Numbered from the stretch's first letter, positions 57,748 through 62,856 are shown. The stretch is 64,000 nucleotides of DNA from an uncultured Gammaproteobacteria bacterium (GCA_964394405.1 CAYMVY010000001.1:428585-492584), one strand, 5' to 3'. The notes: a model not told the origin generated them from the letters alone. Translations and numbers: made by a program.

Positions 57748-60700
57748 ATGGCCGGAACACCAGAATACAAGGGAGTTGAAATTTCCAAATATGCACCAGG
57801 GGCTGAAGTGGTGGTAAATGCTAAAGGTGAATGGAAACTGGCAAAAGTTACTGCGCAGGGTACTCTTCGGGATAAGAAATTGTCCCTCGATGTTGAATAT
57901 CCTCCTTCGGGTACCGGAAGTTCTTCTACCGAGACACTAGTCATCGACGGGCGTGCACCGAGAATTATCTCCCCTGCGGATGTTGCTGATTTTGAAGATC
58001 CAGACAAAGGTACGGTGCATGTTGAGAAAAAGAATGTTGCCAAGGATGGTACACTGGAATTCACCATCAAATACGACGGAAAGTCATATCCAGGGGTAAC
58101 TGAGGAGGTGTTCAAGCTCTGGAAAGAGAGTGCGAGTGTTGGGGAACGTTTCAAACAGCTAAAGACTGAATTGGAGCATAGTTCTGCGAGGAGACATCTC
58201 CAATTTGTTGAGCAGAATAAAGCTGCGGAAAAAATGGTTGCAGAAATTTTTACACTCATCAGAGATACCAAGCGTTTCAATACGTTTGATAAAACACAGA
58301 TCAAAGAAAGACAGAAGAAATTGACCGAACTATTGAAAGATGCAAAAAAAGCGCTCGATACATTGGCGCACGATGTGGCACAGGTTGATCCAAATCAGGA
58401 TGTCGAAGATGACAAACAAAAACGTGAAGCAGAGAGTGTTAGAAAAATATTAGAAGAGGGAATTGCGAATGGAGAAGTGAAGTACAAAGAAAAAAATCGA
58501 AATGCAGCAATACAGAAAGAACAAGAAGCGCATGCAAAAGATAAGAAAAAATACGATGATTGGGTCAAGGCAGGGGCAGTCCCTCCTGCACGGGGTAATC
58601 CACCAGCTGATCCAGGCGCTTTTGTATTCAGTGAAAATAATATAGAGCCAGTCAAACCCGAGCAGACTGCACAGATAAAGAAAGAGGTGTACCTCAGTTT
58701 TTTCGAAAATCCAAACAAGACAGAGTTTCAAAAAAAGGTATTGCGAGAGGTTGAGAAACTGCGGAAACAACAGGCAAAAAAAGATACGATTACTGATACT
58801 AGTGAGTTTGAAAAAACAGGCACCGTGGTCAGTGATTACAAAAAACCGGCAGACAAGAATGTATACCTGACTTCAAAGTATCTTGAAGTAAGTATGAAAT
58901 TGCTTGATCAAGTGTTGAGTAAAATCGAAAAAAACGAGTCAGGGACCATTGCTGAAAAACTTGAAAAATTACATACTCGGGCAGGTCTACTACTCAACGA
59001 AATTCCAAAACAAGCAGACAAAAAACCTCATCCGACATATGCAACTCTGCATGGCAATATTGAAGCACTGCACAAGCTGATTGCGGAGGATGCAAAGAAT
59101 TTCAAAAGTGTAGACACTGCGATGAACGCAGGATTGATACATAGTCCACCTGATCCGAGCCAGCATGGTCCAGATGATTTTGAAAAACTTGGCGCATTCA
59201 CCATAAATCAGCGGGAACAACATGTTGACGAATTAGAAAGAGAGCTTCGTGCACTCATGTCTTCAGAAGAAGTAAGAGAAGATATCAAGGCAAAAAAAGC
59301 AAAAATTGATACAGAAGACGAGGCATATGTGCCAATTATTGATGTTCCTGAACGTATAATGAAAGAGCTGATCAAAGGAAGACCAGAGGTTGGTGTTGCG
59401 GTAGAGTCATTGTTCATGAGTGACCTCAGTACTCCTTCGGGAAAAGATACAGCACTAAAGAAATTCAGAGATATTTTTAGTGACACCGAGCCAGCACCAG
59501 ATGTTCTCGAGAAGTTGCGTACATATGGAATCAAAAATTGGGAACAATTCAAGAAATTGTGGGATACAAAATTTGCAGAAAAAGCACTCGACACCATGCA
59601 TGAGATGGCAAAGGCAATGCTCAAAAAAGAAGTATCTCAAAATATTGGTTTTCTTGAAAAGATTGTTAAATTCAAAGGCCAGATTGCAACCCGCGGAATA
59701 CTGAATGGAGTTTTGGTGGGTGGTTCTGCGTATGCATTGACACTTGTATTAAGTGGCGGAGTAAGTGGAATCATACTCGCAGCTCTCGGAGGTATGACTG
59801 GTGGGGCAATAAAAGGAAAATTATTCGAATGGTTTGGAAAAAAATTTGGAGATAGAAATAAGGAATTGCAAAAAGAGCTCGAGGAATCTACCAAGAAGAA
59901 AAAAAATGTTGTCGGAAGATTGGTAAAAAATGTCATGGTAGGAATCGATGGTGGGACTCTCGACAAGCCAGATATGATCAAGATGGGAGAAATGCCGTCA
60001 TTTGCAGCAATTCTGGCACAGAGCTTGAGGGACACGACGACTGAGGCAAACAAAATGGCAAAGACCGAACCCGAAGACGTGAAAAAATTGGAAGGCAATG
60101 CACGTGTACTCTATGAAGAAATATTATCGCATGTAGATACCGAAGAGCCGGATGAATTAATAAAAAACCAGCTCGCACAGGCAATTCTCAAGATGAATGG
60201 AAAAGGAGACATGAAAGCGCATTTGCTGACAGAAAAATTGGATTCAAAAATCAAGGGAGCAATTGATAAAGCATTTGGAGCGTTTGGCGGACATGAAGGT
60301 TGGAAGAAAGGGGCTCTAGCTGGTGGTATGGTGGGCGCAGCATTTTTTGCCTATCAAGATGTTGCACGTGCAGGATTTGGTGGCGCTCTTGGAGCATGGG
60401 CAGGATTCAAGGAAGGATCAAAATGGGATACCAAGGCAGAGCAGAAAAAAGCGAGAGAACAAGCGTTTGAAGATATTCATGCATTGCGTGAATTTGCCAA
60501 AACAGGCGTAGCAGGAACTGACGCAGAAAGGGCTGTGCTTCGCGAACGCCTCATGCGTCTCAAGCGTCTACTACACGTGAGCCCTGGCGCATCTCAATCA
60601 GAGCTTGCGGTATATGGAATTGTAGGAAGAGAAGTAATACCTGAGAAAAAAGAAAGTCATGGACATGGCGGGCATGGTCATGGACACGGTGGACACAAGA

Positions 60701-62856: not shown

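Follow-up and report, generated by a model that had tools for sequence, protein, structure and literature searches.

The described systems closest to the protein reported here are glycine-zipper transmembrane (TM) helices, the Mic10 subunit of MICOS, the chlamydial Inc proteins and, for the products of neighboring genes, the Wzz/CpsC-CapA and HtrA/DegP/DegQ families. Glycine zippers, (G/A/S)xxxGxxxG, were reportedly described by Kim and colleagues in 2005 in pore-forming proteins, homo-oligomeric channels and VacA; a GxGxGxG motif is typical of Mic10, and the Inc proteins, which Chlamydiae export by type III secretion, have a bilobed hydrophobic domain of about 40 residues. The protein in question, a 1702-residue product referred to here as the giant protein, is encoded in a cluster adjoining smpB on a 64,000-nucleotide stretch of DNA (GCA_964394405.1, CAYMVY010000001.1:428585-492584; hereafter the window) deposited under the name of an uncultured Gammaproteobacteria bacterium. 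The window carries tmRNA, smpB, infC, tRNAs and a DUF5663 gene and is, judging from its sequence, a chromosome segment of the candidate phyla radiation (CPR) type. Comparison of the giant protein with its relatives indicates that it belongs to an unnamed, Patescibacteria-restricted family of giant proteins, and the reading that we favor, with evenly balanced confidence, is that of a resident, oligomerizing trans-envelope scaffold with a variable surface-exposed end.

In terms of its membrane segments, the giant protein resembles glycine-zipper helices in carrying the motif in each of three hydrophobic segments, conserved and above composition in segments 2 and 3. The zipper is, however, a motif class and not a family, its frequency in segment 1 is what composition predicts, and nothing in the giant protein evidences a pore. 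Segment 1 is reminiscent of Mic10 and Inc in its 39–41 uncharged residues, central glycine-rich break, basic flanks and attached long coiled coils; there is no sequence or fold relationship to either, and segments 1–3 contain GG pairs and GxxxG motifs rather than the GxGxGxG of Mic10. The likeness to Inc is anatomical only, and whereas the Inc proteins are secreted, the giant protein appears to be the resident product of a Patescibacteria cluster and has two further membrane segments. We place it outside the kinds known so far, with a function that we can only infer: the defining features of known families are absent from it, and only two of its cluster partners, the products of genes 3 and 4, appear to be distant relatives of known families.

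The whole giant protein has no significant match in Pfam-A, NCBIfam, PHROGs, PADLOC or PDB sequences; its best Pfam matches (E = 0.14 and 0.79) both fall below curated cut-offs, and the Pfam Gly-zipper families do not match it. A word-index search with the full protein returned one relative, a partial 1542-residue protein from a Parcubacteria metagenome-assembled genome (MAG) that is 31% identical over aa 11–1318, with no relative of the C-terminal third and none when the profile of the C-terminal module described below was used. A scan of GTDB genomes yielded no contig besides the MAG contig that was already known, since the patterns picked automatically for it fell within the variable N-terminus. 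When 1.84 billion cluster representatives were searched exhaustively with HMMER, using a profile of aa 575–1702 together with the Parcubacteria relative, 93 representatives emerged at E ≤ 1e-3 (70 at E ≤ 1e-10), mostly of 1400–2100 aa. In local iterative searches, ~66 of the 93 proved homologous and co-linear with the giant protein from near aa 5 as far as aa ~1300–1400, and ~20 further proteins have in common with the giant protein only segment 3, the linker and the module that follows. The named members are all “hypothetical protein” entries from Patescibacteria MAGs, mostly Magasanikbacteria/Parcubacteria; the one labeled Babeliales lies on a 10-kb contig that may be mis-binned.

The family is defined by a co-linear N-terminal domain, helical region, segments 1–3 and C-terminal module, together with last-gene position in the smpB-adjacent cluster, all of which are present in the window. 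The first-pass annotation of this DNA, which was made from sequence alone and could place the protein in no family, was thus right as regards curated families, but a sizeable unnamed family restricted to Patescibacteria does accommodate it. The ORF (open reading frame) that it had called is confirmed, with an ATG start, and sequencing run SRR12404947 contains an identical copy.

The three segments are the sole hydrophobic regions of the giant protein, and the same three appear in the family-averaged hydropathy profile. The hydrophobic stretches quoted in the first-pass annotation were all found, at aa 654–686, 855–887 and 1089–1107, although the second lies ~20 residues beyond the position of about aa 835 originally given. 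Across 66–79 homologs, the fraction of charged residues at the three hydrophobic peaks is 0.01–0.04. The Kyte-Doolittle 19-residue peak is 1.99 for segment 1, below 1.2 for segment 2 and 1.34 for segment 3. Insertion energies over 19 residues (dG19; Hessa biological scale) are +0.9, +8.2 and +4.2 kcal/mol for segments 1, 2 and 3, respectively, against a protein background of 22.9 ± 6.1 and a range of −2.5 to +2.6 kcal/mol for the clear TM helices of the cluster neighbors. By these values, only segment 1 is TM-grade; segment 3 is marginal, and segment 2 is weak.

Segment 1 comprises 39 uncharged residues between the conserved R649 and R/K689, a length that is 39–41 across the family (median segment length 41 aa), and its GG pairs at 658/9, 670/1, 681/2 and 685/6 are conserved. 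Segment 2 consists of two short lobes around the conserved R874 and contains the zipper G878xxxG882xxxG886, conserved at 83–90%; segment 3 contains G1092xxxG1096xxxG1100. Taken together, the position-conserved zipper glycines of segments 2 (G878/G882/G886) and 3 (G1092/G1096) are retained at 72–90%, and specific glycines of the segments are 76–92% conserved across the family. GxxxG-like motifs do occur in all three segments, as had been claimed, but their frequency exceeds that in composition-matched shuffles only in segment 2 (91% versus 50%) and segment 3 (54% versus 32%) and not in segment 1 (77% versus 69%). The conserved glycine positions are consistent with tight packing of helix against helix.

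AlphaFold gave usable domains with a 35-sequence alignment (mean predicted local distance difference test score, pLDDT, of 62), whereas a two-sequence alignment gave a useless model (38.7). In the former, segment 1 folds into a helix, a break at “SGGVS” and a second helix, and it is probably a TM hairpin. Segment 2 folds into a helix, a turn and a long helix; as it is weakly hydrophobic, it would form a re-entrant or shallow hairpin. Segment 3 is modeled as a single helix. Because all three segments are conserved, free of charge and modeled as helices, they are unlikely to be soluble linkers; together with their fixed lengths, these properties favor membrane embedding, and the soluble, flexible linkers that had been named beforehand as the contrary outcome were not found. 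A Foldseek search with the model of the giant protein returned no PDB match (best E 0.5) and no BFVD match (best E 0.11).

The N-terminus of the giant protein is polar and non-hydrophobic (MAGTPEYKGVEISKY...; MAGTPEYKGVEISKYAPGAEVV), the first hydrophobic window occurs at about aa 650, and no Sec signal peptide can be read from the N-terminal sequence, in agreement with the earlier call. The mean number of K+R residues in the 20-residue flanks (upstream/downstream) is 4.2/5.4 for segment 1, 2.8/5.2 for segment 2 and 5.4/2.1 for segment 3. The downstream flank of segment 3 is therefore the sole flank poor in positive charge, and a disordered P/S-rich stretch comes next. The topology that best fits this pattern would start inside the cell at the N-terminus, fold segments 1 and 2 into hairpins and cross the membrane once, at segment 3, leaving the C-terminal ~600 residues outside. 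The second-best topology, with three single passes, would likewise place the C-terminus outside, and the poorest fit is obtained when the C-terminus is kept inside. The pattern of flanking charge fits co-translational insertion into the membrane of the producing cell.

The genomic setting of the giant gene is conserved. In seven loci examined gene by gene, it comes last in the same plus-strand cluster, which diverges from smpB, with infC, rpmI and rplT beyond; this divergence from smpB holds for every examined locus that includes the region upstream of the cluster. The order of the products is a variable single-TM protein of ~150 aa, a polytopic protein of ~253 aa, proteins of ~353 and ~201 aa, a DUF5663 protein (~110 aa), a protein of ~62–70 aa and the giant. 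The gaps between genes in the window are 53, 50, 41, 21, 18 and 4 nt, and the last of these, from the gene 6 stop codon to the giant ATG, is 4–12 nt in every examined locus. A terminator-like hairpin behind the giant gene, bidirectional in form, likely marks the end of the transcription unit. Gene 1 is the variable member, being absent from the Magasanikbacteria locus L009 and replaced in locus L010. Gene 2 is present in every locus with room for it and has the conserved motifs KEKPLRR, PFGY and W.WY..QL.IRFH, with no Pfam, NCBIfam or PDB match; gene 5 is conserved in all loci examined.

With gene 4 as the probe, 80 metagenome loci were fetched, and the trio of polytopic, HtrA-like and Wzz-like genes is present wherever room allows. 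A family giant follows downstream in 25 of the 47 loci with at least 2.5 kb of room. Most of the remaining loci have another ORF of 1000–2300 aa in its place; some of these are remote homologs (E 8.5e-13 and 3e-7), and several carry paired hydrophobic stretches at similar positions. Literature searches on DUF5663, on glycine zippers in Parcubacteria and on chain-length determinants or HtrA in Patescibacteria found no paper describing the locus; the operons of Patescibacteria mentioned in the Lipocone paper do not include the smpB-adjacent cluster.

The profile of the gene 3 orthologs aligns in its protease and PDZ domains to DegP, DegQ and HtrA1 in the PDB (E 5.7e-5 to 1e-4), so that gene 3 shares with this family the protease-fold region, a C-terminal PDZ domain, an N-terminal TM anchor and a predicted extracytoplasmic location. 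It differs in having an additional invariant PHLP motif on the cytoplasmic side and in lacking, across a six-ortholog alignment, any conserved Ser or His at the catalytic positions, for which reason the product is probably a pseudo-protease. Gene 4, the most conserved gene of the cluster (mean column identity 68%), shares with Wzz and CpsC-CapA the Wzz domain (in its orthologs), a two-TM topology and a Pro-rich stretch before TM2. The PF02706 match is unmarked in the L004 ortholog and weak in those of L001 and L009, the TIGR01006 match (E 5e-4) is far below its curated cut-off, and the window's own copy has no Pfam match at E ≤ 1e-3, so that membership in the Wzz/polysaccharide co-polymerase family appears distant. 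Unlike the known systems, the cluster has no Wzy/Wzx, glycosyltransferase or bacterial tyrosine kinase, and gene 4 encodes only ~200 aa; nothing in the known polysaccharide co-polymerase systems resembles the giant protein.

The PHLP core of gene 3 lies in its cytoplasmic N-terminus (55447-55480), ahead of the TM helix, and is invariant in the orthologs of L001, L004, L006, L009 and L010. The form PPHLP, usually followed by x-K, occurs in five of the six orthologs. A peptide of this PxxPx+ docking form might bind the cytoplasmic part of the giant protein or the small partners.

The cluster partners are 42–66% identical to their window copies, versus 19–35% for the giants, and it follows that the giant protein is the fast-evolving member of a conserved locus. 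This holds especially for its C-terminal part, where the tail from about aa 1400 to 1702 has no homolog at all while the partners stay conserved.

These observations can be rationalized with a giant protein that would act as the integral-membrane subunit of a Patescibacteria-specific cell-envelope complex encoded by the cluster at 54117-62856. Its ~1090 N-terminal residues, comprising a β-domain, long K/E-rich helices and two helical interludes, would be cytoplasmic and pinned to the membrane by the two glycine-rich helical hairpins of segments 1 and 2, and segment 3 would cross the membrane once as an internal signal-anchor. A flexible P/S-rich stalk, the conserved ~100-residue module and the lineage-specific tail would lie outside the cell. 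The position-conserved glycine faces (GG pairs and GxxxGxxxG) would pack the helices tightly, driving self-association or association with the polytopic, Wzz/CpsC-like and pseudo-HtrA/PDZ partners. The giant protein would thereby link a cytoplasmic coiled-coil platform, along with the small soluble DUF5663 and 69-residue partners, to a fast-evolving surface end for which the wall, the S-layer and other cells are possible points of contact. We infer the topology, the oligomerization, the association with partners and the role of the external end alike.

Several points weigh against this scaffold. Lysine is abundant throughout the giant protein, which makes the positive-inside argument weaker than usual. 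The hydrophobicity of segment 2 is weak, and the dG19 range of the partners' TM helices is reached by segment 1 alone. Since the best 19-residue dG window of segment 1 straddles its center, this segment could be one long helix instead of a hairpin, and pLDDT is below 50 in segment 1 and in the first half of segment 2. The external part has no match to known wall-, sugar- or cell-binding domains, and among the cluster genes there is no ATPase, glycosyltransferase or flippase from which a process might be deduced.

Some of the same features would suit a membrane-shaping or cytoskeletal tether on the inner face of the membrane, in which the glycine hairpins act as wedges or oligomerization units (compare Mic10, the reticulons and the flotillin hairpins), the coiled coils organize the membrane or cell division and exposure of the C-terminus is not required. 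The ~40-residue bilobed hydrophobic stretch of segment 1 with Arg on both flanks, a segment 2 too weakly hydrophobic for a classical TM pair and the ~1000 residues of K/E-rich helix would all accord with such a tether, and ftsA/ftsZ lie a few kilobases away on the contig of one relative. That proximity is not conserved, however, and the motif typical of Mic10 is missing. The single charge-free helix of segment 3, the drop in K/R behind it and the disordered P/S-rich stalk fit an exported C-terminus better, and the large domains of the partners are predicted to be extracytoplasmic. We regard a tether confined to the inner face as rather unlikely.

An exported, membrane-inserting effector or pore-former, whose zippers would form a pore or an anchor in the membrane of another cell, is more doubtful still. 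Glycine zippers are generally known from pore-forming proteins, the bilobed hydrophobic domain is Inc-like, the family evolves fast, in one member there is a WipA-like phosphatase domain, of a kind known from a Legionella effector, and many Patescibacteria are attached to other cells. The giant protein nevertheless has no signal peptide and no match to a toxin or defense family, no secretion-system genes were seen in the examined regions of the window or in the seven related loci, and in more than 80 loci the gene has a fixed place at the end of a chromosomal cluster that encodes resident membrane proteins. In addition, the charge distribution fits the producer's own membrane, and a 1700-residue coiled-coil protein with 13% Lys would be an unlikely substrate for translocation. 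Of the two possibilities that the first-pass annotation had left side by side, effector or scaffold, the evidence fits the scaffold better, the effector being left with neither a signal nor a secretion-system context.

The His/Gly tract (HGHGGHGHGHGGH), to which the first-pass annotation had drawn attention as a metal-binding-like repeat encoded by a microsatellite, does exist. Its codons are mixed (cat/cac for His; gga/ggc/ggg/ggt for Gly), there is no slippage-prone perfect repeat and Tandem Repeats Finder makes no call over it even at minimum score, so that the microsatellite reading is rejected. The tract occurs in the query alone among 94 sequences, the family alignment always breaks at its site (aa ~963–1000), and the loop that hosts it is hypervariable and disordered in the AlphaFold model. 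It thus appears to be a lineage-specific insertion, predicted to lie on the cytoplasmic side and not a feature of the family; as such, and because the length of its loop varies from 7 to 170 aa among family members, it has no part in the core function. A metal-binding or metal-handling protein centered on the tract would draw support from the general resemblance of HGHGGHGHGHGGH...H.H to the His-rich metal-binding tails of HypB/UreE-type proteins. Its absence from all 93 relatives, its variable loop and the lack of any metal-transport or metallochaperone domain in the protein or the cluster make this highly improbable.

The least probable reading, that of a prophage tape-measure-like protein or other mobile-element cargo, takes up the size, the helical K/E-rich composition and the Gly-rich hydrophobic stretches seen in many tape-measure proteins, as well as tape-measure models among the noise-level BFVD matches (E 0.2–2, TM-score ~0.07), and is effectively refuted by the lack of a Pfam match for the giant protein, by the lack of a PHROG match for it or any neighbor and by a non-phage chromosomal context (smpB, infC, rpmI, rplT and membrane proteins) whose order is conserved across divergent genomes.

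Table 1. Positions of the features of the giant gene and of its cluster in the window.
Feature	Position (nt)	Strand	Residues	Basis and remarks
Giant gene	57748..62856	+	1702 aa	ATG start, ORF translation
N-terminal conserved β-rich domain	57763..58113	+	6-122	Conserved W29, P71, G101; predicted cytoplasmic
K/E-rich helical (coiled-coil-like) region	58102..59682	+	119-645	Composition, model; predicted cytoplasmic
Hydrophobic segment 1	59695..59811	+	650-688	Hydropathy, family alignment, model
Hydrophobic segment 2	60304..60408	+	853-887	Hydropathy, family alignment, model
His/Gly tract	60658..60696	+	971-983	Sequence
Hydrophobic segment 3	61006..61071	+	1087-1108	Hydropathy, family alignment, model
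P/S/A/G-rich disordered linker	61081..61326	+	1112-1193	Composition, AlphaFold model
Conserved ~100-aa α/β module	61333..61647	+	1196-1300	Family alignment, AlphaFold model
C-terminal tail	61945..62853	+	~1400-1702	No detectable relative, within the family included
Cluster gene 1, one N-terminal TM helix (dG19 -2.5), helical ectodomain	54117..54587	+	~156 aa	No significant family match
Cluster gene 2, polytopic membrane protein, ~8 hydrophobic helices	54641..55396	+	251 aa	Hydropathy
Cluster gene 3, N-terminally anchored HtrA/DegP-like fold with C-terminal PDZ	55447..56499	+		PDB profile
Cluster gene 4, Wzz/CpsC-like protein, two TM helices	56541..57152	+	203 aa	Ortholog PF02706, TIGR01006
Cluster gene 5, soluble DUF5663 protein	57174..57515	+	113 aa	PF18908, E 1.5e-7
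Cluster gene 6, soluble helical protein	57534..57743	+	69 aa	Sequence, synteny
Terminator-like GC hairpin (CCCCCTCAGGGGG) and T-run	62898..62920	+		42 nt past the giant stop codon

The remaining regions of the giant protein are listed in Table 1. The N-terminal 650 residues are K/E-rich (13.4% K and 10.5% E), as the first-pass annotation had noted, but they are not helical throughout, since the first ~118 residues form the conserved β-rich domain. The profile of this domain matches nothing in PDB or Pfam, and an SH3/Tudor-like reading of it was not supported by either set of profiles. The region that follows is modeled as helical over aa ~119–629, with low confidence, and carries the conserved motif L590-G594-W598-F601-W605. 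The C-terminal 600 residues, previously termed unassigned, remain so in curated libraries but can be resolved into the linker, the conserved module and the genome-unique tail. The module, with the pattern KKGEG.LH...W...L..MGF..G.WGYPFTVH.GA.VEL..D.DG.PH, is the best-modeled part of the protein (pLDDT 87–95) and is found too in giants with different N-terminal parts. Its profile has no PDB or Pfam match, and a LysM-like reading ("I.kGEG.LH..nRL ... TVH.GA.VEL") was not supported, the best results being non-significant β-hairpin similarities to YegP and SpoVT/AbrB (E > 0.5).

A Pfam scan of 32 family members gave a single match, WipA_Phos. The giant at the same locus position in Magasanikbacteria locus L009 (10001-18496; P0082/P0099, 2831 aa) has a different N-terminal part of ~1600 aa, in which a WipA-like phosphatase domain (aa 1105–1316, E 2e-18) precedes the glycine-rich segments and is predicted to be cytoplasmic. 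At the other end of the protein, nine of 62 long family members (P0002, P0008, P0011, P0033, P0034, P0037, P0041, P0047 and P0091) terminate in “-AA”, often “...KAA”, against 0.6 expected by chance, and some share “LLE.LGI...KAA”. Such a C-terminus may serve as a ligand of the PDZ domain in the HtrA-like partner. A shared C-terminal PDZ-ligand motif was considered and set aside, as it is not universal and is absent from the giant protein of the window, which ends “...NKASQ”.

Around the cluster, a tmRNA with a long tag peptide (ANLLERAKSAVAKAFSVSSFAPAVA) directly adjoins smpB (53191-53594 and 53613-54113, both on the minus strand). The giant gene is followed by a gene-free stretch of ~600 nt (62857-63458) with no Rfam match, with the bidirectional hairpin at 62898-62910 and with two copies of a strong promoter-like element, GG(T/G)TATCTTGACAAAA with TATAnT 17 nt on, at 62950-62985 and 63101-63136. 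Similar spacers of 0.5–0.7 kb follow the giant gene in L004 and L009, and the spacer may represent a small RNA missing from the annotation or a regulatory region. The next gene (63459-64000, plus strand) starts with an ATG at 63459 behind a GGAG ribosome-binding site, runs beyond the window end and encodes a coiled-coil protein with one TM helix (…PGWLKALAVLALLVGIGAFIDARL…). In L008, L009 and L010, a Wzy_C (O-antigen ligase/polymerase-like) gene lies 6–9 kb downstream of the giant, followed in two of the three loci by a radical-SAM gene.

Elsewhere in the window, the plus-strand gene at 36945-40289 encodes a 1114-residue protein that combines an M23 peptidase domain with a Lamin-Tail Domain and resembles components of patescibacterial operons with these domains (PMC12419801); near it lie a Big_7 Ig-domain protein (34664-35860) and a 395-residue protein with no family match (33275-34462). 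A second large ORF, of 1015 aa on the minus strand (25236-28286), has no Pfam match. In a GC-rich island at 40001-42000 (0.51 versus ~0.41 elsewhere), ORFs on the two strands overlap. The one at 40446-41135, on the minus strand, is a phosphoribosyltransferase, and the opposite-strand ORFs, which have no matches, are probably spurious.

Patescibacteria account for a large share of bacterial diversity. To our knowledge, very few of their lineage-specific genes have an assigned role, and we know of little that is established about the organization of their envelope or their attachment to partners. With this analysis, a hypothetical protein becomes part of a family that numbers at least 93 clusters and has a fixed architecture, set in a conserved envelope locus of six to seven genes that is easily located because it adjoins smpB. 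Should the giant protein be merely a structural membrane tether, the value would lie mainly in annotation, and the N-terminal β-domain, the glycine-hairpin core and the C-terminal module could seed family models. Slowly evolving membrane partners beside a rapidly diverging giant are the pattern expected of a surface-exposed specificity component. More tentatively, and at well below even confidence, the cluster may encode an undescribed trans-envelope apparatus, made up of the polytopic protein, the pseudo-HtrA/PDZ protein, a Wzz-like ring, two small cytoplasmic adaptors and the giant, whose hypervariable external end would contact or recognize the host or partner cell (or else the wall or S-layer of the producing cell itself). 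The giant protein would then evolve fast because it is the specificity determinant of an episymbiotic lifestyle.

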